NCBI GenBank assembly: GCA_038215455.1
Contig: JBBQQW010000002.1
Span: 1-38,340, forward strand
Length of the DNA: 38,340 nt
DNA from: Armatimonadota bacterium
GTDB taxonomy: Bacteria > Armatimonadota > Hebobacteria > CAIYQO01
Reading direction: 5' to 3'
Part shown: piece after piece, positions 5,784 to 38,340 of the stretch
Numbering within the stretch: the first letter of the stretch is position 1
How the letters are laid out: the number at the start of each line of letters is the position of its first letter
The notes under the pieces: generated by a model
Told to the model about the DNA's origin: nothing
What the model saw: the letters and a program-made list of their open reading frames with translations, nothing else
The model's database searches: none
Position numbers and translations under genes: made by a program

Positions 5784-5930
5784 ACGAAAGCAGTTCCTAG
5801 TTTCAAGGCAGGTTTAGCGTGTTATAGTGCCCGCCAGCCTATCGCCCAGCCCTGAAGGGCTGGGCTAAGGGGGTTCTGCGACATCTAATTATCATCCACA
5901 AATAATAAAGCGCACTTTATTGCTGATTCC
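5784..5930 (-). repeat. Family C composite intergenic repeat (minus orientation)
   Basis: The reverse complement aligns over ~145 nt at roughly 80% identity with 19778-19918. Shared blocks: ggaatcag..aagtgcgctt.attatttgtggatga, gggctgggcgataggctggcggg, acacgctaaacc.gccttg.aact.ggaact. Confidence 0.75.
5898..5921 (-). terminator. AU-rich hairpin + U-rich tail directly after the PD40 gene stop (part of family C)
   Basis: Minus-strand sense reads AAUAAAG-UGCG-CUUUAUU followed by AUUUGU, ~10 nt downstream of the stop at 5931-5933. The same hairpin, with a compensatory base-pair change, occurs at 19787-19810. Confidence 0.5.
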
Positions 5931-6220: not shown

Positions 6221-7432
6221 CTATGATAACTGTGTTATAACTTTTATTCCAGATGGAGTGGGGGAAAAATGGTCCGCAAAACTGTATACTACTGTCATTT
6301 TTTTAGTCTGTGGATTGAAGTACACCAGTTTTTTTTCAGTATCGGTTGCACCTTGTATTACAAACAGGGGCGGATTTGACGACTCTAAATTGATCAATTC
6401 TAACCTAGTCTCTCCGCTAAAAACTGTTGTCCCAGTAGCTACATCGATTATTGATATGGAATGGTCACCATTTGCATATGCCAATGTTTTCCCGTCGGGG
6501 TAGAATTGCATTATATCGTTCATCTGATATCCGAGATATTTTGTATTCGGGGGCGCAAGTTGCTTTTCGGTGCCGGTGGCTAGCTCGTGTAATAGCACCT
6601 CTCCATTTGCTTTAATGTAGGCCAGGTATTTGCCATCTGACGATATGGCATATTGAGAGATATCTGTAAGTCCATGAAGGATAGTGGCATTGCCATTTGC
6701 GACCAGATAGGTGGCCAACCGGCTCTGCTTTGTTAGCTCTTTGGGTTTTAGCGACCAGCCAGATTTATAGCTTTTCACCAGATAGTCACCAGAATCGCCT
6801 ACCCATCGTACCCCGTCTTCTAGTTTTGCCACATTTTCTATCAACGTCATCTTCCCGGTGGCTACCTCATATTCGACTAGTTGCTTATCAGTGGATGTAA
6901 CAATCTTTTTGCCATCGGGAGATAATGAGATGGTGGGGATAGAGTAATTAGGCATGGCTACGGGCATCAAAGTCGTCTGTTTCATATCGGCCATGTTGAT
7001 AGAGACCAGCATTGTAGTCATATGCTGCCCTGCATCTTTTGATGGGGCGATAGCATATATAGTTTTACTATCAGGTGCCCACAAGGCGAGGATATCAGAA
7101 TAATTGAACGATACACCAGCATCATACGATTCCTGCTTAGCCAAATCGTATAATTTCAGATTAGCATTACCTTTTCCATTCTGAACAGAAATTGCGATCC
7201 AATTCCCATCGGGTGACCATTTATATAATATACCGTTAGAGGTGCCATCAGCATCTTCACAGATCAATTTTTTCTCCAGGGTGGTGGTATTCAGCAGGAA
7301 AAGCTTATTCTGCCAAACGTCTCTGCTATTAACATGTCCATAATGCCGTTGCGACACCACCGCCAATTCGGGCGCGGCGTACAGGGCTTGCAGTGATGCC
7401 AGTAGCAGACCAATAGCGATTAGTAGTTTCAT
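6221..7432 (-). CDS. Secreted PD40/TolB-like beta-propeller repeat protein
   Basis: 403 aa with signal peptide MKLLIAIGLLLASLQALYA. Five PD40-type motifs: WSPDGNWIAISV, WAPDSKTIYAIA, LSPDGKKIVTST, ISSDGKYLAYIK, FYPDGKTLAYAN. GGAGG SD upstream. Markedly AT-rich relative to its neighbours. Confidence 0.8.
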   Translation of the reverse strand: MKLLIAIGLLLASLQALYAAPELAVVSQRHYGHVNSRDVWQNKLFLLNTTTLEKKLICEDADGTSNGILYKWSPDGNWIAISVQNGKGNANLKLYDLAKQESYDAGVSFNYSDILALWAPDSKTIYAIAPSKDAGQHMTTMLVSINMADMKQTTLMPVAMPNYSIPTISLSPDGKKIVTSTDKQLVEYEVATGKMTLIENVAKLEDGVRWVGDSGDYLVKSYKSGWSLKPKELTKQSRLATYLVANGNATILHGLTDISQYAISSDGKYLAYIKANGEVLLHELATGTEKQLAPPNTKYLGYQMNDIMQFYPDGKTLAYANGDHSISIIDVATGTTVFSGETRLELINLESSNPPLFVIQGATDTEKKLVYFNPQTKKMTVVYSFADHFSPTPSGIKVITQLS

Positions 7433-7507
7433 AGTGACCTCCTGTTAAAATAGTTCCTAGTTCCAAGGTTTGTGTTCGGAATACTAAATTTCGCAGAAAC
7501 TACGTTA

Positions 7508-7535
7508 ATTATACAGGTAAAATGGGTGGTGTCAA
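7508..7535 (-). promoter_or_regulatory. Consensus sigma70-type promoter for the PD40 gene
   Basis: The minus strand reads TTGACA-N16-TATAAT (both hexamers perfect), about 75 nt upstream of the ATG at 7432. Confidence 0.6.
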
Positions 7536-7722
7536 GGGGTGTATTTGCGACAACTGAAGGGTGGGTGTAGCGAGGGCGATTCATGCCCAGGGCATACATC
7601 TTGTTTTATTCCGGCACCGCCCGCAGTGGTTACTTTAGAGGGATGAATGAGTCTGTGTCGAATATTACCATAATGGGGTGGTGAAGGCTATAGGCGGGAC
7701 GCCCGAGCTACAGAATTAGCCA

Positions 7723-9756
7723 ATGAACGAAAACTACGACGTAATAATAATCGGCGGCGGGCACGCCGGGTGCGAGGCGGCGCTGGCGACGGCGCGGCGC
7801 GGCTTCTCCACACTAATGCTGGCCATCCGGCTGGAGCGCGTGGCGCACCTGCCGTGCAACTGCAGCGTGGGCGGCCCGGCCAAGGCACAGCTGGTGCGCG
7901 AGATGGCGGCGCTGGGCGGGGCCATGCCATATATCGCGGATGCCGCGGTGACGCATGTGCGCATGCTCAACACCGGCAAAGGCCCGGCGGTGCAGGCGAT
8001 CCGGATGCAGGTGGACAAAACGCGCTACCCGCAACTGATGCGCGCGGTACTGGAGGCGGAGCCGAACCTGACCCTGCGCGAGGGCGAGGCGGTGGGGTTG
8101 CAGACCGCTGACGGCACGGTAACGGGAGTGACACTGGCCGACGGCAGCGCGATCGGCGCGCGTGCGGTGATCCTCACCACCGGCACCTTCCTCAACGGTG
8201 TCACCTTCATCGGCGACCAGACGAAACCCGAGGGGCGCTGTGGCGAGCCACCGGCGACCAAACTATCGGAAGGATTACGCGCCGTCGGGCTGCGCCTGGG
8301 ACGCCTGAAGACCGGCACCACCCCGCGCCTGCGCGCTGACAGCATTGATTACACCGTCTGCGAGGTGCAACCCTCGGCGGAGGCGCCGCTGCAGTTTCAG
8401 TTTGGCTGGCAGCGACCTAACCCTCTATCGAATATAAGTTCCAAGTTCCAAGTTCCAAGTTCCAAGGCCAGTAGTCCGCCGTTCACGGCTGGGCGGAACG
8501 CAGACGACCTCGAACACGACAAACCACCATTGGAATTTGGAATTTGGAATTTGGAATTTGGAGCTACATTCGTCGGGAGGTCAGGCCTACCCTGCCACAT
8601 CACCTACACCACGCCGGAGACGCATGAGATCATCCGGCGCAATCTGCAACTATCGGCGTTGTATGGTGGGCTGATCACCGGGCGCGGGCCGCGCTATTGC
8701 CCGTCGATTGAGGATAAAGTGGTGCGCTTCGCCGAACGCGAGCGGCACCAGATCTTTCTCGAGCACGAGGGGTGGGACTCCGAGCTAGTCTACCCGATGG
8801 GCATCAGCACCAGCCTGCCGCTCTATGTGCAGCAGGAGTTCCTGCACAGCATCCCTGGGCTGGAGCAGGCGGTGATAGTGCAGCCGGGCTATGCGGTAGA
8901 GTACGATTTTATCCCGCCGGAGCAACTGCGGCCTTCCTTGGAGACCAAAGCGGTGCAGGGATTATTCAGTGCCGGGCAGCTTAACGGCACCAGCGGCTAC
9001 GAGGAGGCGGCGGCGCAGGGGCTGCTGGCGGGGATCAACGCCGGGCAATATCTGCGCGGCGAGGAACCACTGATATTACGCCGCGACCAGGCGTTCCTCG
9101 GGGTGCTGGTGGATGACCTGGTGAGCAGCGGCACCGAGGAGCCGTACCGCATGCTCACCTCGCGCGCGGAGCACCGGCTACTGCTGCGCCAGGACAACGC
9201 CGACCTGCGCCTGACGGATATCGGCCACGCGCTGGGGCTGGTGGACGAGGATGATTACGCGCGTTTCTGCGCCAAACGTGCCTCCATTGACGCGGAACTA
9301 CTCCGCCTGCAGGCATTATCCCCCGGCGACGCCGGCGTGGACGGCGCGGGGCTGGCCAACGCGGAAGAGTGGCTACGCCGCCCGGAATCATCATATAATG
9401 AGCTGCGCCCGGCGGATATGGACGAAGAAGTAGCGGAACAGGTGGAAATAACGGTAAAATATGCCGGGTACATCGCGCGGCAACGCAAGCAGGTGGCGCA
9501 ACAGCTACGACTGGAGTTCCGCACCCTGTCGCCAGAGATCGACTACCGCAGCATCCGCGCCCTCTCACGCGAAGGAGCAGAGAAGCTGGCACGCGTGCAA
9601 CCATTGACGGTTGGGCAAGCGGCACGCATCAGCGGCGTCACTCCGGCGGATATCTCGATACTGCTGGTGTGGCTACGCGCACACGAAGTAAAAGATGTTT
9701 CACGTGAAACACCTAACCCCCGCCCCCTTCCCCGCGAGGGAAGGTGTGCTGACTGA
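7723..9756 (+). CDS. mnmG: tRNA uridine-5-carboxymethylaminomethyl(34) synthesis enzyme MnmG (GidA), carrying an internal in-frame repeat insertion and a repeat-encoded C-terminal tail
   Basis: 677 aa. FAD motif DVIIIGGGHAGCEAALA; RLKTGTTPR; GPRYCPSIEDKVVRF; GYAVEYDF; AGQLNGTSGYEEAAAQGLLAGINA; C-terminal ARISGVTPADISILLVWL. Confidence 0.95.
   Translation: MNENYDVIIIGGGHAGCEAALATARRGFSTLMLAIRLERVAHLPCNCSVGGPAKAQLVREMAALGGAMPYIADAAVTHVRMLNTGKGPAVQAIRMQVDKTRYPQLMRAVLEAEPNLTLREGEAVGLQTADGTVTGVTLADGSAIGARAVILTTGTFLNGVTFIGDQTKPEGRCGEPPATKLSEGLRAVGLRLGRLKTGTTPRLRADSIDYTVCEVQPSAEAPLQFQFGWQRPNPLSNISSKFQVPSSKASSPPFTAGRNADDLEHDKPPLEFGIWNLEFGATFVGRSGLPCHITYTTPETHEIIRRNLQLSALYGGLITGRGPRYCPSIEDKVVRFAERERHQIFLEHEGWDSELVYPMGISTSLPLYVQQEFLHSIPGLEQAVIVQPGYAVEYDFIPPEQLRPSLETKAVQGLFSAGQLNGTSGYEEAAAQGLLAGINAGQYLRGEEPLILRRDQAFLGVLVDDLVSSGTEEPYRMLTSRAEHRLLLRQDNADLRLTDIGHALGLVDEDDYARFCAKRASIDAELLRLQALSPGDAGVDGAGLANAEEWLRRPESSYNELRPADMDEEVAEQVEITVKYAGYIARQRKQVAQQLRLEFRTLSPEIDYRSIRALSREGAEKLARVQPLTVGQAARISGVTPADISILLVWLRAHEVKDVSRETPNPRPLPREGRCAD
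8416..8585 (+). repeat. ~170-nt imperfect palindromic repeat element inside the mnmG ORF (in frame, no stop)
   Basis: The arms cctaaccctctatcgaatata (8416-8436) and ctacattcgtcgggaggtcagg (8564-8585) form an imperfect inverted repeat. (AGTTCCA)x4 at 8437-8464 faces (TTGGAAT)x4 at 8530-8557. The core tccgccgttcacggctgggcgga (8475-8497) shares cgttcacggctgggcg with the intergenic repeats at 505-520, 19848-19863 and 29699-29714. Confidence 0.8.
9696..9711. promoter_or_regulatory. parS centromere-like site (perfect 16-mer palindrome)
   Basis: TGTTTCACGTGAAACA matches the widely conserved ParB/Spo0J binding consensus. It lies within the last codons of mnmG, about 1.2 kb upstream of parA. Confidence 0.85.
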
Positions 9757-9820
9757 ATGGTAATGAATTAAAAACGACCTTGCTCCCCCTTCCGCGCCGG
9801 GAAGGGGACGGGGGTTAGGT
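9712..9820. repeat. Family B double-hairpin repeat (copy 1)
   Basis: cctaacccccgcccccttccccgcgagggaagg...aaaaacgacc..ctcccccttccgcgccgggaagggg.cgggggttagg. Outer inverted termini cctaaccccc/gggggttagg enclose two ccccttccc-loop-gggaagggg hairpins. Other copies: 14668-14804, 27464-27575, and a partial copy at 19661-19736. Confidence 0.8.
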
Positions 9821-10609: not shown

Positions 10610-10776
10610 TTTGGCCTTTGGGTTTGGATTTGATGTCTGGAAAGATGCCACGGCCCGCAAAGCGGTTTTTATGCCCGAAAATTCGAGGCTAAATCGCACA
10701 GAATGCCCGGTACGGGCTAAGTCGGGGGTAAGTGTAGGTTTTATACCTCCGGAATGTGCTATGGAGGGGCGATTGT

Positions 10777-10803
10777 GCCATGGGCGTCCCGCCCATGAGA
10801 ACG
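10777..10803. repeat. Single family-D-type hairpin (gccatgggcg-tcc-cgcccatgagaacg)
   Basis: The same catgggcg...cgcccatgagaacg unit recurs at 22061-22094, 22355-22383 (inverted) and 38262-38310. Confidence 0.5.
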
Positions 10804-14658: not shown

Positions 14659-14667
14659 GAAGGAATA

Positions 14668-14804
14668 CCTAACCCATATCCCCTTCCCTGCCATTCGGCA
14701 AGCTCATGATCTACGACGAGGGAAGGGGTGCCTATCCAATATCTACAATTGAAAAACGACCATGCTCCCCCTTCCCGCGCCGGGAAGGGGGCTGGGGGGT
14801 TAGG
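14668..14804. repeat. Family B double-hairpin repeat (copy 2; first hairpin loop enlarged)
   Basis: cctaaccc...ccccttccctgcc[30-nt extra loop]gagggaaggggtgcctatccaatatctacaattgaaaaacgaccatgctcccccttcccgcgccgggaagggggctggggggttagg. It starts 10 nt after the oxidoreductase stop. Confidence 0.8.
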
Positions 14805-14843
14805 TAATACCTGACCTCATCAAACTTAGAAAAGGAAAATATC

Positions 14844-16235: not shown

Positions 16236-19200
16236 ATGATGATCCGATGGTGGCGCTCGCTGAGTATATTACTGCTGTTGCTTCCTTTGCTGGTGGCAAC
16301 TGCGGCTGATAAATTGCCGACGAATACTGAGAATGTGCGCGTCCGCACGGTATGGACGGATAAAGGCGTATACTTCACTTTCGTAGTGGAGAAAGTCGGG
16401 GTCAACGGTAAGCACACTGGTTATCCCAGCCTGGCCTGGATTGATGATGCCGTCGCCGTCTACTTTGACCTGACCCCGGCTGGATCACCACGTCTCACCG
16501 ACAGTTGTCGGCGCGTCGTCATCAGTGCCGCTGGCGGGGCCGCCTTTCAGCGGGTGGTAAATGGCGAATGGCTGGATGACCCCACCGGGTTGAAGGATGG
16601 CAAACCCACCTTTGAATATGCGGTGAAGGTAGCTGTGGATCCACGTGATAAAGAGAAGCCCGCCACCGGATATACCGTGGAGTTAGGCTTGCCTTGGAAT
16701 CTGGTGTTGCCTCGTCTGCCGGAAAATCTCCCGCGGAGTGCCGTGCCGCGCACCCGTTTTGCCATGGCAGTTTATGACTTCGGCAATTCGCTCCCCGTGG
16801 GTATCTGGCCTACGGCGCTGTCGCTGAACAACGGCCTGCTTATCCCGGAGAAATGGGGCCAGCTGGGCTTTATTCAGGGGATGGGGGTGGAGAAACCCGA
16901 GGCGCAGCTGCTCAACGTCCCCTATTTACCAGATAACCCTAATGTCGATGGTGACGCGATGGGGCCGGAGTGGATGCTGGCCGGGGGCGTCAATCTCTCG
17001 TTTGCATCGGTATCCAATACCACGCGGAACAAATCGCGCGTGCAGGTATTTGCTGCCTGGTACAGCCTGGAGGATCCAACGCCGAATTTCCCCCATGTTC
17101 CGCTGGAGCCGCGCTGTTCCGGTGCTACCGCGCTGGAGCCGCTTTATCACATGGAGCAACTGACGAGCGCACGCACGGTGGGGGTAGATACCTTTGCCGT
17201 GGCACTGCCGGTGAACAATGCAGAACGTGCCCGCACCCGCACCGCCCTGTGTGCCCTGGTGGAAGCGCTGCGTGGATTTGACGAGGTTTATCGGAAAAAG
17301 GGCCTTAATTACGCAGTGCTCTTAATGCCCGTGCTCGATATGGGTGCGGCAAATAATCTTGATATGAAGACACCCGCCGGGCAGCTGGTGGCACAGAACG
17401 TACTGCAAGATTTCTTCGCGCTGGTACCGCCGCAATATCGGTTGCAATGCAGCGATATCAGCGGTGCGGCGCATCAGCCGGTGCTGCTGTCCGCCCCGGG
17501 CAAAAATGTGCAGTGGGACGAGAGCTTCTTTGCTGCATTACAGAAAAATTCCCGCTCCGCGGCCACGCTGCCTTTTGGCTGGTTGTTGGATAATAGCTAC
17601 CGGAGTATGGCCGTAGATCCGCATACACTCACGCTTTGTTCCTGGGATGCAGCTGCCGCTTTCACGCAGGGAGAGGGGCAGCTGAATGCCGCGCTCCTCG
17701 CCCCCGGGATGAGCGGCCCGTATAAGGATGCACAGCCGCGTCTGGATGGGGAGATATATCGCAACGCCTGGATGCAGCTGACGTCAGCGCAACCGGAGTT
17801 CGTGCTGCTGCGCAGCTGGAATGACTATCGCCAGGGGACAGAGGTGTCCGCCTCCACCCAGTATGGCATCGCCAGCCTGGATATCACGCGCGACTCGCTC
17901 ATCCGGCAGTCGCAGGCCTGTGCGGGCCAGATCAAGCTGCTGCGTACCAGCCTGCCGGCGGTAATCCGCCCGGGTATGACGGTTCCCTTCGATGTGCTGA
18001 TAAAGAATGGCTCAATGCGTGGCCTGCTCCCCTCTGGGGGGTTCGGCGTGCAGTACCAGATATTCCGCGACGGCCTGGAAGTAGCACATGGTACCGCATC
18101 AGATAACGTGGCATTGCTGGAGCAGATCCCCACACAATTGCAGTTATCTATCACGGCGCGGGACAATGAAGCCCGCCGAGATTGGAAGCCGGGAGATTAC
18201 CAGCTGAAGATCGGCTTCACACAGAATCGCATGTCTACCATCATCTTCTCTGCCTTCATCAAGACGGTGGCTGACTTCACTATCCCCTTCACCGTCGCAG
18301 ATAACGCGCCTCTGGTGCAGTTGCTCAATTGGGAATGCCCATCAATCGTCACCGTGGGGGACAAACCGAAGGTCGCGCTGCAGCTGCGTAACCTGGGGGG
18401 GGGCAAATGGGGTAACCAGGATCGACTGGCGTGGAGCTGGCGCGACGACAACGGCACCACCGTGCCCGATAGTGCGCTGGCGGCCACGCAGCTGCGAGAT
18501 ATCGCCCCCGGTGGCATAATGGACGTGAATATCCTGCTGGCACAGACCCCGAAGCTGCCGGGATGGTATACCCTGCACGCTGAAGTGCAGCGCGAGGGCA
18601 ACGCGGCCATATCGCTAGTTGATATCCTGGTGCAGGTCTCCGCAGCTGATTATCGTGCAGAATTCCTCAAGGTGCGGATCCCCGGTGTCATTGTCGAGAC
18701 CGATCGGATATTGGCCGGTGAGGTCACGCTGCGCAATAGCGGCAACACTACCTGGTTGGCGGGTAGCACGCAGATCAGCTGGCAATGGCTGGCTTGGGAT
18801 GGCACGCTGGTGCCGGGTGCCTCCGGCAGCTTCCCCCTCGCCGATGCCACCTCACCAGGTGACGAACTATCGGCCTCAATAAATATCCTCCCACCACCGG
18901 CTGGTTATGGCCAGTTCCGCTGCGTGCTGGGTGTCACTGTAAAAGGCATCCCTGCGCGCCTGTGGACAGCGCCAGACATCTCCGCCTCGCCTATTTATAA
19001 CGTGCTGGTGCGCAAATGGCATTACCTGCCCTTGAATCTGGCGGCGTATTTCGACAACTACACTGCGGCGGCGGATATGGATGCATCGCCATTGCGTGCG
19101 AACTTCGATGGCAAGGGCAATAGTTACCCGCTGGAAGAGTTCCTGCCCGACGCCACCCGTCCGGTACTGGGGTATCAGGCGGGATACCGCACCGGCAAGG

Positions 19201-19634
19201 TAGATATCACGGGGCCGGGATTCCGTTTTGCTGATCCCACCGGAGTACGTGCGCCCGTGGTGAAGGCCAGCGGCCAGAATATCAGCTGGGGCGGGGTGAA
19301 ATCCGCCGCTATCCACCTGGCCGCATCCAGTACCGCCCCGGTAACGGCCATCGCGGCGAAAGAATTCCAGTTTATCATCAACTACACGGACGGCAATGTC
19401 GCGGTGAAGCTGAAGGTGAGTAACTGGATTGACACCCCGGCTAACGGCGAACCAGTAATCTGGAAAACGCGCCATATCCACACCGCCGTGGGCAACGACT
19501 GGTTCAACAACGGGTCGATTTTCGCCTATAAAATACCACTCGACTCCAAGCGCACGGTGAAAGGAATATCCCTGCCCAACGACCCCGACCTGAAACTCTT
19601 CGCATTAACGCTGCAGGAGCCAGATGCGGAGTAG
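16236..19634 (+). CDS. Large secreted multidomain protein (CBM9/DOMON-like N-domain, glycosidase-like core, several Ig-like modules, C-terminal beta-sandwich)
   Basis: 1132 aa. SD GGGGGAG; signal peptide MMIRWWRSLSILLLLLPLLVATAA; VWTDKGVYFTFVV...DDAVAVYFDL (CBM9-like); RSWNDYRQGTEV (resembles WNEWxEG of GH99-like/WbsX domains); repeated ~100-aa modules of the pattern V...N.G...W. The function is not assignable. Confidence 0.8.
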   Translation: MMIRWWRSLSILLLLLPLLVATAADKLPTNTENVRVRTVWTDKGVYFTFVVEKVGVNGKHTGYPSLAWIDDAVAVYFDLTPAGSPRLTDSCRRVVISAAGGAAFQRVVNGEWLDDPTGLKDGKPTFEYAVKVAVDPRDKEKPATGYTVELGLPWNLVLPRLPENLPRSAVPRTRFAMAVYDFGNSLPVGIWPTALSLNNGLLIPEKWGQLGFIQGMGVEKPEAQLLNVPYLPDNPNVDGDAMGPEWMLAGGVNLSFASVSNTTRNKSRVQVFAAWYSLEDPTPNFPHVPLEPRCSGATALEPLYHMEQLTSARTVGVDTFAVALPVNNAERARTRTALCALVEALRGFDEVYRKKGLNYAVLLMPVLDMGAANNLDMKTPAGQLVAQNVLQDFFALVPPQYRLQCSDISGAAHQPVLLSAPGKNVQWDESFFAALQKNSRSAATLPFGWLLDNSYRSMAVDPHTLTLCSWDAAAAFTQGEGQLNAALLAPGMSGPYKDAQPRLDGEIYRNAWMQLTSAQPEFVLLRSWNDYRQGTEVSASTQYGIASLDITRDSLIRQSQACAGQIKLLRTSLPAVIRPGMTVPFDVLIKNGSMRGLLPSGGFGVQYQIFRDGLEVAHGTASDNVALLEQIPTQLQLSITARDNEARRDWKPGDYQLKIGFTQNRMSTIIFSAFIKTVADFTIPFTVADNAPLVQLLNWECPSIVTVGDKPKVALQLRNLGGGKWGNQDRLAWSWRDDNGTTVPDSALAATQLRDIAPGGIMDVNILLAQTPKLPGWYTLHAEVQREGNAAISLVDILVQVSAADYRAEFLKVRIPGVIVETDRILAGEVTLRNSGNTTWLAGSTQISWQWLAWDGTLVPGASGSFPLADATSPGDELSASINILPPPAGYGQFRCVLGVTVKGIPARLWTAPDISASPIYNVLVRKWHYLPLNLAAYFDNYTAAADMDASPLRANFDGKGNSYPLEEFLPDATRPVLGYQAGYRTGKVDITGPGFRFADPTGVRAPVVKASGQNISWGGVKSAAIHLAASSTAPVTAIAAKEFQFIINYTDGNVAVKLKVSNWIDTPANGEPVIWKTRHIHTAVGNDWFNNGSIFAYKIPLDSKRTVKGISLPNDPDLKLFALTLQEPDAE

Positions 19635-19635
19635 T
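19554..19635 (+). repeat. 82-bp direct repeat, copy 1 (authentic 3' end of the 1132-aa gene)
   Basis: acggtgaaaggaatatccctgcccaacgaccccgacctgaaactcttcgcattaacgctgcaggagccAgatgcggagtagt. It is 81/82 identical to 21972-22053. Confidence 0.9.
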
Positions 19636-19660: not shown

Positions 19661-19736
19661 CCCGGAGGGGTGCTTATCCAATATCTACAATTGAATCGGC
19701 ACCCCTTCCCTCGCAGGGAAGGGGCTGGGGGTTAGG
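19661..19736. repeat. Family B repeat, partial copy (spacer + second hairpin + right terminus)
   Basis: cccggaggggtgcttatccaatatctacaattgaa...caccccttccctcgcagggaaggggctgggggttagg. It matches the right two-thirds of 14668-14804. Confidence 0.7.
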
Positions 19737-19777
19737 TGAAACCAATCGGCAAAGCGTCCGAAAAATCTATTATCGAA

Positions 19778-19918
19778 GGAATCAGTGATGAAGTGCGCTT
19801 CATTATTTGTGGATGAAAATCAGATGTGGTAGAACCCACTGCCCTGCCGTTCACGGCTGGGCGATAGGCTGGCGGGTACGAACACGCTAAACCAGCCTTG
19901 GAACTTGGAACTATTTTC
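19778..19918 (+). repeat. Family C composite intergenic repeat (plus orientation)
   Basis: See 5784-5930. It contains the terminator-like hairpin (19787-19810), a GC-rich block ending gccgttcacggctgggcgataggctggcggg, and ccttggaacttggaactatttt immediately before the SD of the V4R gene. Confidence 0.75.
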
Positions 19919-19970
19919 GCAAAGGAGATGAATTATATCGAACGAGCGTAAGTATGAATTCAGTTGGGAT

Positions 19971-20471: not shown

Positions 20472-21978
20472 TTGGATAGGGGTAATCCGGCTGAAATTGA
20501 AGAGATCGTCGCTTTACTGACGATGGCGTTGGATGGCCGTGCGCAGCCTGCGCCGTTGCCCGCCGTGTGGGCGCAGCTACCTGAAATTGCTAACCTGTAT
20601 GACGGAATCCTTGTATTACGGCAGGTGGTGGTGGCGCTGGCATCTGGCGACCTGGCACCGGAGGTCACCCGGCGCGGCTTTGTGGCCGGTGCGCTGAAGG
20701 GGATGCAGTTCGAATCTGCGCCACCTCACCTGGCAGACGCAGATGATCGCAGCGGGGGACTATGCGCAGCGGGTAGCGTTCATGGGGGAGTTCTCCACCG
20801 CCTTTAACTCCATGGTAGTACATTTGGAAGAGGCGCGCGCGTTACTGGCAAAACAAAACGATGTATTGAGCCAGGAAGTCACCACCCGCAAGATATTGGA
20901 GGTGGCGGAGCGAGAGCAGCGCAATTTCGCCGAATCACTGAATCAGGTCAGCGCCATCCTCGGCTCCTCGCTTGACCTTAATCAGGTGCTGGATAGCATC
21001 CTCGATACTATTGGGCATGTTATCCCCTATGACGGCGCTTTCCTGGTGCTGCTGGAGGATGGGCAGGTGCGCATCGTGCGACAGCACCTTAACCTGGAGG
21101 GGAGCGAGCAGGATGTGACCAAACAGCCGATCATTCCGCTGGTGGATGCGGTGCCGTTGCGAATGATGTATGAAACGCACCAATCGGTCATCATCGAGGA
21201 GATGCCGGAGCACTTCTGCTGGCAACCCGAGGACGCGGAGTGCCCGATGCTTTCATTGCTGGGTGCCCCGATTATTATCCAGGACGAAGTGCAAGGGTTC
21301 CTGCTACTGGGGAGCAAACAGGCAAGTTTTTACCCGCAGCTTTCGGCAGATCGGCTAGCCGCCTTCGCAGCGCAGTCAGCATTGGCGATACAGAACGCCC
21401 GCCTCTTCCAGGATATCTACCGCCTGGCCACCACTGACTCGCTCACCGGCATCTATAACCGCCATCACTTCTATAAGATTGGCAGCGGCGAATTTGCCCA
21501 GGCGCAACGACAGCAGTATCCACTCGCCTGTATCATGCTGGATATTGATCATTTCAAGGATGTCAATGACACCTGTGGCCACGCCATGGGGGACGAAGTA
21601 CTACGCCAGACGGCCCGGACATGTGCGGCGCAATTGCGCGACAGCGATATCATCGGGCGCTACGGCGGCGAGGAATTTGTCATATTACTCCCCTACACCG
21701 ACACCGTCGGGGCACAGTTGATAGCCGAACGCCTGCGGCAGGCAGTGCTGCACACCACAGTTACCTGGGAGGATCAGCTACGCTCGATCACCATCAGCCT
21801 GGGCGTGGCGGTGATGCAGGATTCATCCACCATATACTCACTGATCAACCAGGCCGACCAGGCGATGTACCACGCCAAAGAGCAGGGGCGGAACCAGGTG
21901 CAGGTGTATAAATTGCATCCGAGTGAAACCCCTCACAACGCCCCCCAACAGCATTTAGCCGAGAAAATAGTACGGTGA
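20472..21978 (+). pseudogene. Sensor diguanylate cyclase (N-terminal region + HAMP-like linker + GAF + GGDEF) interrupted by a 1-nt frameshift near 20709
   Basis: Frame 1 (20472-) ends ...RRGFVAGALKGMQ. The +1 frame continues SNLRHLTWQTQMIAAGDYAQRVAFMGEFSTAFNSMV. Together these form one contiguous conserved linker motif as I recall it from related sensor proteins. Deleting one T in cagTTcgaat restores a single ~500-aa ORF. Confidence 0.65.
20743..21978 (+). CDS. GAF-GGDEF diguanylate cyclase (longest intact frame of the interrupted gene)
   Basis: 411 aa. GAF-like region (ILGSSLDLNQVLDSILDTIGHVIPYDGAFLVLLEDG...). GGDEF domain TDSLTGIYNRHHF, MLDIDHFKDVNDTCGHAMGDEVL, active site GGEEF with an upstream RDSD (RxxD I-site), QADQAMYHAKEQGRNQV. 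The stop codon lies inside the 82-bp repeat copy 2. Confidence 0.85.
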   Translation: MIAAGDYAQRVAFMGEFSTAFNSMVVHLEEARALLAKQNDVLSQEVTTRKILEVAEREQRNFAESLNQVSAILGSSLDLNQVLDSILDTIGHVIPYDGAFLVLLEDGQVRIVRQHLNLEGSEQDVTKQPIIPLVDAVPLRMMYETHQSVIIEEMPEHFCWQPEDAECPMLSLLGAPIIIQDEVQGFLLLGSKQASFYPQLSADRLAAFAAQSALAIQNARLFQDIYRLATTDSLTGIYNRHHFYKIGSGEFAQAQRQQYPLACIMLDIDHFKDVNDTCGHAMGDEVLRQTARTCAAQLRDSDIIGRYGGEEFVILLPYTDTVGAQLIAERLRQAVLHTTVTWEDQLRSITISLGVAVMQDSSTIYSLINQADQAMYHAKEQGRNQVQVYKLHPSETPHNAPQQHLAEKIVR

Positions 21979-22053
21979 AAGGAATATCCCTGCCCAACGA
22001 CCCCGACCTGAAACTCTTCGCATTAACGCTGCAGGAGCCGGATGCGGAGTAGT
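21972..22053 (+). repeat. 82-bp direct repeat, copy 2 (orphan duplicate of the 1132-aa gene's 3' end)
   Basis: 81/82 identical to 19554-19635 (G instead of A at 22040). It is not attached to the rest of that gene and provides the TGA stop of the GGDEF ORF. Confidence 0.9.
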
Positions 22054-22060
22054 CCGCCGT

Positions 22061-22454
22061 GCCATGGGCTTGTCGAATGGGCCCATGAGAACGGGGCTAA
22101 TGATAAGCGTTCGTAAATCCTATTACCCCGGAGGGGTTTAGGCTTATAGCCGGGGGTGAAGCGGAGCGGAACCCCGGGTTTTAGGTGCAAACACAACGAA
22201 GCCCCGGATGGTGCGACGGCTAAGCCGTCGCACCATCCCGGGCTTCGAAATTTTAAGAGGGCACATCACCCCGGGGTTCCGCTCTGCTCCACCCCGGGCT
22301 ATATTCCGTCACCACTTCGTGGTGGTTTATCTTGCGACCACATTCACCGCAACCCCGTTCTCATGGGCGAGACGCCCATGGCACAGACCAATAATGCAGA
22401 ACTATTTGGATGAAGCTCCCCTTTCGTGCTTTTCGTGTATTTCGTGGTTTTAAG
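22061..22454. repeat. Family D nested palindromic element (~390 bp)
   Basis: Three concentric inverted-repeat layers. Layer 1: gccatgggc..gcccatgagaacgg (22061-22094) vs ccgttctcatgggcgagacgcccatggc (22355-22383). Layer 2: tagccgggggtgaagcggagcggaaccccggg vs ccccggggttccgctctgctccaccccgggcta. Layer 3: the central near-perfect 23-bp-arm hairpin gaagccccggatggtgcgacggc-taa-gccgtcgcaccatcccgggcttc (22198-22246). The right flank carries (tttcgtg)x3. Related copy at 38212-38340. Confidence 0.7.
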
Positions 22455-27457: not shown

Positions 27458-27581
27458 GGTCTACCTAACCCCCAGCCCCTTCCCTGCGAGGGAAGGGGTG
27501 CCTATTCAATGATTCTCTATGGAAAAACGATCATTCTCCCCCTTCCCGCGCCGGGAAGGGGGCCGGGGGGTTAGGTAGACC
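27458..27581. repeat. Family B double-hairpin repeat (copy 4, the most symmetrical)
   Basis: ggtctacctaacccccagccccttccctgcgagggaaggggtgcctattcaat...aaaaacgatcattctcccccttcccgcgccgggaagggggccggggggttaggtagacc. It has a perfect 15-nt terminal inverted repeat. Confidence 0.8.
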
Positions 27582-28125: not shown

Positions 28126-28269
28126 AGCCGTTCCTTCCCTTTATCTGCGTCCCATGCATAGTTTTCGCCATATGCAGGATTCCTCCTGCCGGAAATAGTT
28201 CCAAGTTCCAAGGCTAATGAGTCCGAATAGTTACGCGAAGCGTAGATTGGTGCTATAGCGGGTTCATTA

Positions 28270-29545: not shown

Positions 29546-29746
29546 CCAGGAGTATCGTTTTTAGCGACAAACTGTCCTTACGGGCCTGGCCGTGAACGAC
29601 CAGGCTGGAAGGCCTACGGCCAATCGCACATTCGGGCGGGACGGGTAAGGGTAAGCGTTCCCGTCCGAAGGACGATCGGCGAAGCCCTCCAGCCCAGTCG
29701 TTCACGGCTGGGCGAACAGGACGGGCGCTAAAAACGATACTCCTGG
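29546..29746. mobile_element. Family A MITE-like element, full copy with 21-bp terminal inverted repeats
   Basis: TIRs: ccaggagtatcgtttttagcg (29546-29566) and cgctaaaaacgatactcctgg (29726-29746). The whole 201 bp folds as one long imperfect hairpin. It is flanked by ggatagacc (left) and ggaatagacc (right), a possible ~9-bp target-site duplication. Truncated copy at 353-532. Confidence 0.8.
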
Positions 29747-38211: not shown

Positions 38212-38340
38212 CTTATAACCACGAAAAGCACGAAAAGGGGAATTCATCCGAATAGGTCTGTGCCATGGGCGTCCCCCGAAGGTCATGAGCCTGTCGAATG
38301 GGCCCATGAGAGCGGGCTAATAGAGAAGCGTTCGTAAACC
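38212..38340. repeat. Family D repeat, partial copy running off the right edge
   Basis: aaccacgaaaagcacgaaaagggg...tgccatgggcgtc...ctgtcgaatgggcccatgagagcgggctaatagagaagcgttcgtaaacc. The left part is the reverse complement of 22384-22452. The right part parallels 22061-22120. Confidence 0.65.

Follow-up and report, generated by a model that had tools for sequence, protein, structure and literature searches.

In contig JBBQQW010000002.1 of an Armatimonadota bacterium (assembly GCA_038215455.1), the housekeeping gene mnmG is located at positions 7723–9756 of the + strand and forms an intact open reading frame (ORF) encoding a 677-aa MnmG, as a preliminary description of this DNA had stated. The stretch analyzed here, referred to as the window, comprises 38,340 nt, i.e., 38 kb of the source genome. 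In the middle of mnmG lies a hairpin-forming repeat element of 147–170 bp, which had been described as a repeat with nucleic-acid rather than protein logic, related to intergenic repeats and kept in frame inside the gene. This description was borne out, and the element proved to be absent from orthologous genes. Its parts are arranged as follows.

8415–8585, +: the whole imperfect palindrome, encoding about residues 232–288
8415–8425, +: outer left arm, ACCTAACCCTC, which matches ACCTAACCCCC, the left end shared by the short palindromes that the two nearest orthologues have at this codon and by the repeats between genes named PNP elements below
8426–8435, +: TATCGAATAT, the ATTTTCG-type tail found after heptamer arrays in intergenic leader modules, here in reverse complement
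8436–8466, +: left heptamer array, (AAGTTCC) x4.4, encoding SSKFQVPSSK
8467–8529, +: core, containing hairpin-1 (8478–8496, GCCGTTCACGGCTGGGCGG) and a degraded hairpin-2
8530–8562, +: right heptamer array, (TTGGAAT) x4.7, encoding LEFGIWNLEFG; the variant unit has T where other copies have C
8563–8574, +: GCTACATTCGTC, a leader-type tail after the right array
8575–8585, +: outer right arm, GGGAGGTCAGG, resembling the GGGGGTTAGGT end of the PNP-type element and also aligning with the Shine–Dalgarno position of leader modules

The facing heptamer arrays were recovered by Tandem Repeats Finder with 100% matches in both, and the outer arms (8415–8435 and 8563–8585) pair imperfectly, in agreement with the long imperfect inverted repeat first noticed. 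Alignment of the left arm to the reverse complement of the right one gave 64 columns for the two 63-nt arms (62 base pairs and two gaps), with 44 Watson–Crick pairs, seven G-U pairs on the + strand only, five G-U pairs on the − strand only and six other mismatches. Folding of 8405–8595 yielded −80.7 kcal/mol on the + strand (z = −7.0; none of 200 shuffles was as good) and −82.4 kcal/mol on the − strand (z = −6.7; again no shuffle as good). The G+C content of the element is 50%, against 65% in the rest of mnmG. The element is stop-free and in frame, two of the six frames are open across it, and the peptides it encodes include ASSPPFTAGR and NADDLEHDKPPLEFGIWNLEFGATFVGR. A 16-mer of the core, CGTTCACGGCTGGGCG, starts at 8480 and, as had been claimed, recurs exactly at 505, 19848 and 29699; with up to two mismatches there are five matches in the window, the fifth at 5843–5858 on the − strand (two mismatches), against 0.09 expected from shuffles. 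Given the fold, the arrays, the CGTTCACGGCTGGGCG matches and the G+C content, the features first described are real and far beyond chance.

A comparison with orthologues had been set beforehand as a test, the alternative being an ordinary loop conserved in related genomes. The MnmG homologues assign the organism to Armatimonadota. Two of the best 120 are close to the window protein (85–90% identity), and their DNA, L001 (GCA_038248345.1) and L002 (an ENA metagenome scaffold), was compared together with that of an outgroup about 66–71% identical, L239 (GCA_054641855.1). No conserved segment of ~55 aa is common to the orthologues; in an alignment of 14 MnmG sequences including both close orthologues, a 49-aa segment occurs in the window protein alone. 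Between …QFQFGW and LPCH there are 59 residues in the window and 10 in the outgroup. Measured from the conserved motif CE.QPS as far as the motif CH.T.TT, the site spans 108 nt in L239, 129 nt in L001, 138 nt in L002 and 255 nt in the window. Relative to the outgroup, L001 thus carries 21, L002 30 and the window 147 additional nucleotides (49 codons), all multiples of three, and the frame is kept as had been proposed.

The heptamer element is missing from L001 and L002, which have short palindromes at the same codon instead. In all three lineages this codon follows W-Q/R-R-P, and the site reads as follows.

L001: ACCTGACCCCCC-ATCCTCCACGGAGATGGAGG-CCC-GGGGGTTAGGT, where ATCCTCCACGGAGATGGAGG-CCC is the hairpin region between the outer arms
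L002: ACCTAACCCCC-AA-CCCCTTCCCTGCGAGGGAAGGGG-AGCAGGT, the centre of which can also be given as CCCCTTCCC..GGGAAGGGG
Window: ACCTAACCCTC, then a block of TATCGAATAT, the arrays with the core and GCTACATTCGTC, then GGGAGGTCAGG

The outer arms find their match in a short palindromic repeat that is frequent in the intergenic DNA of the window and of L001. These repeats are called PNP elements here, after the peptide encoded in the mnmG frame; examples are a near-perfect 49-nt hairpin at 9122–9170 of L001 and the window copies at 9711–9820, 14666–14806, 19686–19738 and 27462–27577. In L002 (22 kb), a PNP-type end was found only within mnmG. PNP ends number 10 in the window, 6 in L001, 1 in L002 and 0 in L239, and heptamer dimers 5, 1, 0 and 0, respectively, i.e., repeat density tracks lineage. 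The arrangement of the site suggests a nested insertion of the heptamer element into an older palindromic element. A single codon offers a dated series that begins with the empty site and passes through two short elements to a long nested one, and this series could be used for studying how repeats enter and grow inside proteins.

Related nucleotide copies were also sought within the 38-kb window, where they are indeed present. The region from the core into the right array (8478–8542) is 78% identical over 65 nt to the intergenic stretch 19846–19910, and 12 leader modules, taken from the window and from a relative's genome, JBBRXO, can be aligned with each half of the palindrome in mnmG. The resulting 14-sequence module alignment consists of the two mnmG halves, four other window copies and eight JBBRXO copies (L024, L055, two in L093, L095, L102, L106 and L113). 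The modules share the order hairpin-1 (GCCnnGCCGTTCACGGCTGGGC), hairpin-2 (AGGCTGG…CCAGCCT), (TTGGAAC)n, (A/T)TTTTCG and GGAG, and the mnmG element is two modules placed head to head with the central hairpin-1 in common. Hairpin-1 itself displays compensatory change, with seven of nine pairs altered on both sides; 89.7% of cells are paired versus 74.6% in shuffles, and the covariation score is 0.488 versus 0.216. Neither value was reached in any of 500 shuffles, and sliding the partner columns abolishes the signal. The window copies outside mnmG are listed below.

19841–19919, +: closest intergenic relative in the window, with hairpin-1, hairpin-2, TTGGAACTTGGAACT, ATTTTCG and then GGAG
5785–5865, −: second module copy, an orphan without a downstream ORF
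7447–7473, −: heptamer array ending 19 nt before ORF 6221–7432 begins with its ATG; a Shine–Dalgarno sequence lies between them
28190–28230, −: heptamer array followed by a Shine–Dalgarno-like GGAGG and flanked by sequence similar to the left half of the mnmG core

Two further occurrences of hairpin-1 in the window are at 505 and 29699. These two CGTTCACGGCTGGGCG matches are explained by a separate 179-nt repeat, present at 353–531 and 29547–29725 with 96% identity, whose outer arms are hairpin-1-like. The 179-nt repeat folds as one long hairpin of about −95 kcal/mol on either strand and matched no Rfam family.

The inserted segment was mapped onto the known structure of MnmG, in which a loop position had been expected. 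A phmmer search against solved MnmG structures returned two aligned stretches (query residues 4–222 and 288–653), and the intervening query residues 223–287 face only 15 residues of E. coli MnmG (3cp2 chain residues 244–258, or approximately 224–238 in native numbering after subtraction of the 20-residue tag). Insertion domain 2 of MnmG comprises residues 161–174 and 193–348, and the flexible MnmG-specific motif 1 residues 273–287 (PMC12397908); judged by this alignment, the insert lies in a loop of insertion domain 2, upstream of motif 1. An AlphaFold2 run on window MnmG with the 14-sequence alignment gave a mean predicted local distance difference test (pLDDT) score of 77.7 for the whole protein, with values of 26–35 and no secondary structure in residues 236–285, 93–95 in the flanks, and below 50 in the repeat-encoded C-terminal tail (residues 659–677). 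Most likely, the insert forms a disordered loop at the surface of an enzyme that is otherwise normal. C47 and C277 of E. coli MnmG are important residues (PMC12397908); in the alignments these lie in the PCN and GPRYCPS motifs, which in window MnmG hold C45 and C326, both invariant columns across the 14 aligned sequences. For annotators, the consequence is an mnmG product 49 aa longer in mid-protein and extended by a repeat-encoded C-terminal tail, the additional length being due to repeats and not to new domains.

This tail derives from a second fusion between a repeat and mnmG, a PNP-type palindromic doublet at 9711–9820 on the + strand. It starts right after …VSRET, within the next proline codon, and its first 46 nt provide the last 15 mnmG codons and the stop (TPNPRPLPREGRCAD*, stop at 9754–9756). 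The C-terminal tails of the two nearest orthologues are unrelated to that of the window, and the reading frame of the window tail is the frame of the PNP element inside L002 mnmG (RPNPQPLPCEGRG).

These comparisons show that the segment is foreign to mnmG, repeat-derived, frame-preserving and located in a tolerant loop, and the alignments show it to be assembled from the same modules as the intergenic repeats of the lineage. [quoted passage not shown] The best reading is of a selfish, RPE- or REPIN-like element that is translated and tolerated. The traits of RPE-like insertions are found here: a palindromic repeat in the ~100–170 bp range with a stable hairpin; an in-frame, stop-free insertion in a conserved gene that is absent from orthologues; related copies elsewhere, including intergenic ones (within the 38-kb window, the four listed above); and, by prediction, a position compatible with the fold (a 15-residue loop opposite the insert and pLDDT below 50). 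Terminal inverted repeats, a MITE trait, are likewise present, as the whole element is an imperfect inverted repeat.

As to mechanism, the common ancestor of the window lineage and its two nearest relatives would have acquired a short PNP-type element (ACCTAACCCCC … GGGGGTTAGGT) at the mnmG codon. The hairpin centre would then have been altered independently in each of the three lineages, and in the window lineage the doublet with heptamer arms presumably took its place or invaded it. Where a gene is under selection, only stop-free insertions of a multiple of three would survive, and the in-frame state can be attributed to this survivorship, without any need for selection on the peptide; the chance of a random insertion of this kind being both a multiple of three and stop-free was estimated at about 6%. 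The modules may be moved or copied by a trans-acting transposase, by insertion targeted to hairpins or by ectopic gene conversion.

Several observations weigh against this interpretation. No target-site duplication is visible at the junctions, where the palindrome runs into the flanks, and a Pfam scan of 20 window ORFs found no transposase; transposition is therefore not demonstrated. A free two-armed donor copy was not found in the 38-kb window or in the relative's loci, and all intergenic relatives seen are single-arm half-modules. Translation of the insert is deduced from frame preservation rather than observed. In addition, the palindrome ends resemble the Shine–Dalgarno region of leader modules about as well as PNP-type ends. 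Since the ends fit both, the nested history is not the sole decomposition, and a doublet of leader modules may have replaced the older element.

A different view of the site, which we regard as rather unlikely, is that the mnmG codon serves as a standing hairpin "landing pad", where cassettes are inserted or swapped at the tips of hairpins by a mechanism of mobility or repair that needs neither target duplication nor a cis-encoded transposase. It is based on the observation that the three related genomes have the same outer arms and three different palindromic centres. The heptamer arrays could then act as a recognition or priming element, and the site could be part of a wider, undescribed class of heptamer-array palindromes. 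Inverted pairs of AGTTCCA arrays are present in Verrucomicrobiota, Acidobacteriota, Planctomycetota and Chloroflexota, and some of them lie in frame in genes (see below).

It is improbable that the hairpin is a functional cis-regulatory mRNA structure tuning MnmG expression, e.g., an RNase III site, a translational brake or a platform for a factor that recognizes heptamer leaders. The very stable sense-strand fold, the compensatory changes in hairpin-1 across copies and the fixed Shine–Dalgarno-adjacent position of the intergenic relatives, which suggests a role at the RNA level, are in its favor. So is the pairing of the heptamer arms, which on the sense strand form G-U pairs where the other strand has C-A mismatches; the preliminary description had taken this as a hint of selection on a sense-strand RNA or single-stranded DNA structure. 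The asymmetry holds for the heptamer arms but not for the whole palindrome, where strand-specific pairs are balanced (7 vs 5), and its recurrence in every unit reflects a single variant unit, with T for C, that was amplified across the right array by slippage, not four independent changes or repeated selection. The antisense strand folds equally well, with equivalent minimum free energy and z; given these equal folds and the balanced G-U counts, sense-strand selection is not supported and was rejected. Moreover, the structure is missing from orthologues of 85–90% identity, so mnmG does not need it.

An assembly artefact, in which repeat-derived sequence was misjoined into mnmG (for instance by a chimeric or fold-back join during metagenome assembly), is very unlikely. 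The element is built of repeats present elsewhere in the genome, and the insert is known from one assembly. Both flanks, however, carry on mnmG precisely, in frame and without stops, and the TTGGAAT variant unit and the particular core sequence copy no other stretch of the window. A smaller palindromic element also occurs at exactly the same codon in two independently assembled relatives, which identifies a genuine repeat-insertion site.

We give little credence to removal of the segment after transcription or translation by an intron-, intervening sequence-, bypass- or intein-like process that would leave a mature MnmG without it. The long stems of rRNA intervening sequences serve as RNase III substrates, and a heptamer-flanked cassette in another Armatimonadota genome (L100, see below) encodes a 23S_rRNA_IVP protein. 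Against this, the element has no Rfam hit above the gathering threshold, with a permissive scan returning only sub-threshold plant miRNA hairpin models, and 49 aa is far below the size of an intein. The frame is kept, stops are absent and length differences are multiples of three in all three lineages, as expected only if the segment is translated. No bacterial mechanism is known to religate mRNA after RNase III cleavage. An ordinary lineage-specific loop that grew in place by duplication or slippage, unconnected to mobile repeats, is the least credible explanation: loop length does vary among MnmG proteins and heptamer arrays can expand by slippage, but the core shares 78% identity with an intergenic repeat over 65 nt, leader modules of two genomes align with each of the halves, the segment is palindromic at the DNA level and, in G+C content, it falls 15 points short of the remaining mnmG sequence.

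In-frame intragenic palindromic repeats have been documented, including the RPEs (Ogata et al. 2000, as reviewed in PMC10969869). Like RPEs, the mnmG element is a palindromic repeat of about 150 bp with intergenic and intragenic copies, is in frame and stop-free in a conserved housekeeping gene, and encodes a peptide thought to be compatible with the fold of the host protein. It differs in phylum (Armatimonadota, versus Alphaproteobacteria for RPEs), in having arms made of tandem heptamer arrays, in being a head-to-head doublet of a module that is otherwise Shine–Dalgarno-adjacent, in apparently lying within an older palindromic element, and in that one gene is seen to be hit here, against dozens in R. 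conorii. The element may thus be called RPE-like by its features alone, and no claim is made that it belongs to the RPE families themselves. The phylum is another one and the sequence family probably new, for a phenomenon that has precedent, and the unusual traits of the element are the heptamer-array arms, the identity with a Shine–Dalgarno-adjacent leader module and the apparent nesting at a site that differs among three relatives. The RPE phenomenon, i.e., selfish palindromic DNA in frame in conserved genes, is hereby extended to Armatimonadota, a little-studied phylum for which most knowledge comes from metagenome-assembled genomes (MAGs).

ERIC, BOX, QMITE1 and the Anabaena MITEs (PMC10969869) are likewise small non-autonomous inverted-repeat elements that sometimes form in-frame ORF fusions. 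Unlike these, the mnmG element has no target-site duplication and no identified partner insertion sequence, and its relatives are modular half-elements instead of full-length copies of one master sequence. With the REP/REPIN–RAYT system (PMC3733652) it shares short GC-rich hairpin units, inverted doublets that form long hairpins, stems kept through compensatory change and abundance of the repeats between genes. REP units end in a GTAG or CGTC tetranucleotide tag (PMC3733652), whereas this tag is missing here, the ends being ACCTAACC.../...GGTTAGGT and CGAATAT/ACATTCG; no RAYT (IS200-like) gene is present in the 38-kb window, and REPs are extragenic by definition while the mnmG copy lies inside a gene. 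The element is comparable to RPEs and intragenic MITEs in function and to REPIN doublets in architecture.

Tandem heptamers just upstream of start codons are found among the intergenic relatives, the mnmG copy itself being intragenic. In JBBRXO, eight of nine arrays precede by 18–33 nt the ATG of an ORF of 160 aa or more, just as the window array at 7452–7465 precedes the ATG of ORF 6221–7432 by 19 nt, and seven of the eight have a Shine–Dalgarno sequence between array and ATG, 7–21 nt after the array. The leaders of JBBRXO and the window consist of (TTGGAAC)2–6 followed by (A/T)TTTTCG and a Shine–Dalgarno sequence, and precede unrelated genes; judging from these arrangements, the intergenic relatives look like 5′-leader modules shared by unrelated genes. 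The fixed Shine–Dalgarno-adjacent position points to a possible lineage-wide leader element. In the sense RNA, the leader arrays present GGA every 7 nt, and it is conceivable, as a speculation, that a CsrA-like or other RNA-binding factor acts at them. A sigma-70 promoter shared by the leader modules was considered and dropped: a consistent one was not found within the modules, and the sole strong match (12/12 to the consensus) lies at 7535–7508, upstream of the array at 7447–7473.

The closest published analogue of the leader modules would be the TAACTGA heptamer repeats, which in Beggiatoaceae, Cyanobacteria and Bacteroidetes lie just upstream of start codons and for which a post-transcriptional regulator was proposed but not identified (PMC4679880). 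Both comprise two to six tandem heptamers at a fixed short distance upstream of unrelated start codons, and both have a patchy cross-phylum distribution and a mechanism of spread that is not known. In contrast to TAACTGA, which contains TAA and TGA, the heptamer AGTTCCA/TGGAACT is stop-free in six frames; the leader modules also have a canonical Shine–Dalgarno sequence between array and ATG, and their arrays are linked to GC-rich hairpins and able to form palindromes. The stop-free heptamer was ruled out as a special property, as 50% of all heptamers are stop-free in six frames.

The wider distribution of the heptamer was assessed with the 17-mer AGTTCCAAGTTCCAAGG, which was found at no fewer than 116 loci in 185,579 species genomes, with about 70 chance matches estimated. 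The matches listed include Verrucomicrobiota, Acidobacteriota, Planctomycetota, Chloroflexota and Armatimonadota. Many of these loci hold long arrays, of up to 11 units, an inverted partner array lies within 250 nt in 29 of the 116 (18 of the 47 with arrays of at least three units), and the centres between paired arrays are highly variable. Inverted AGTTCCA arrays lie in frame inside the following genes.

L017, 1321–1520: dnaE (PHP domain), Verrucomicrobiota
L054, 1049–1120, and L082, about 6750–6833: a CCG/Fe-S (CCG/Fer4) protein gene, from two genomes of Verrucomicrobiota in which the site is identical
L116, 277–347: an AMP-binding enzyme (AMP-ligase) gene, Verrucomicrobiota

In L017, the DNA between the arrays is native dnaE and aligns with E. 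coli DnaE; there the arrays are short patches on either side of host sequence and do not serve as arms to an element that has a core of its own. In IMG/VR, triple arrays of three control heptamers were present in 45, 41 and 1 contigs, against 9 for AGTTCCA; perfect arrays of (ACCTTGA)x3 account for the 45 and of (ATCGTCA)x3 for the 41 (loci L249–L334). The ACCTTGA arrays have an inverted partner within 250 nt in 11 of 45 loci, a rate similar to that of AGTTCCA. Heptamer arrays, some of them palindromic, thus appear to be a general, little-described feature. A single cross-phylum mobile AGTTCCA family, weakened by the chance expectation, is not claimed in view of the control heptamers and the native dnaE in L017.

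Further searches were less informative. Exact matches to the MnmG and RsmG proteins of the window were not on record; when the 56-aa peptide of the insert was searched against a protein database, no candidate had three 5-residue words in common with it; a metagenome scan with GGCTGGCNNNGACCTRACCC, a pattern too loose to inform, returned 120 loci, none of them in mnmG; and the heptamer-dimer string had no match in a full-text literature search. A census with an idealized array peptide yielded 562 matches, of which the 120 listed are proteins of 38–121 aa, almost all without a Pfam domain and none a named known protein; being short and nearly domain-free, they are uninformative on insertions into real genes. 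In L100 (688–1180), another Armatimonadota MAG, inverted heptamer arrays flank a 129-aa 23S_rRNA_IVP gene (PF05635, E = 3.7e-34), the cassette as a whole being intergenic. Another IVP gene, in L040 (7005–7358), is near an array but not flanked by arrays. Derivation of the heptamer palindromes from 23S-rRNA-IVP cassettes was considered weak, with L100 as the one clear case.

Upstream of mnmG, between hflX and mnmG, the − strand ORF 6221–7432 encodes a 403-aa beta-propeller protein (PD40/WD40-like). This ORF is missing from the syntenic regions of L001 and L002, and G+C is low in the intergenic DNA just upstream of the ORF (39% in 7400–7549). The intergenic DNA of the window is, in general, dense with modular palindromes. 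A further hairpin repeat family, CATGGGCGTCCCGCCCATGAGAACG, is located at 10774–10803, 22063–22117, 22356–22385 and 38284–38338 and also occurs in the relative's genome (L095, about 3720; L113, about 3600). An inverted repeat with 54-nt arms lies at 22125–22323. Finally, an 82-nt direct repeat with 99% identity (19554–19635 and 21972–22053) extends over the 3′ ends of two ORFs, 16236–19634 and 20743–21978, the latter encoding a GAF-GGDEF protein, and both ORFs therefore end in the same approximately 26 codons.

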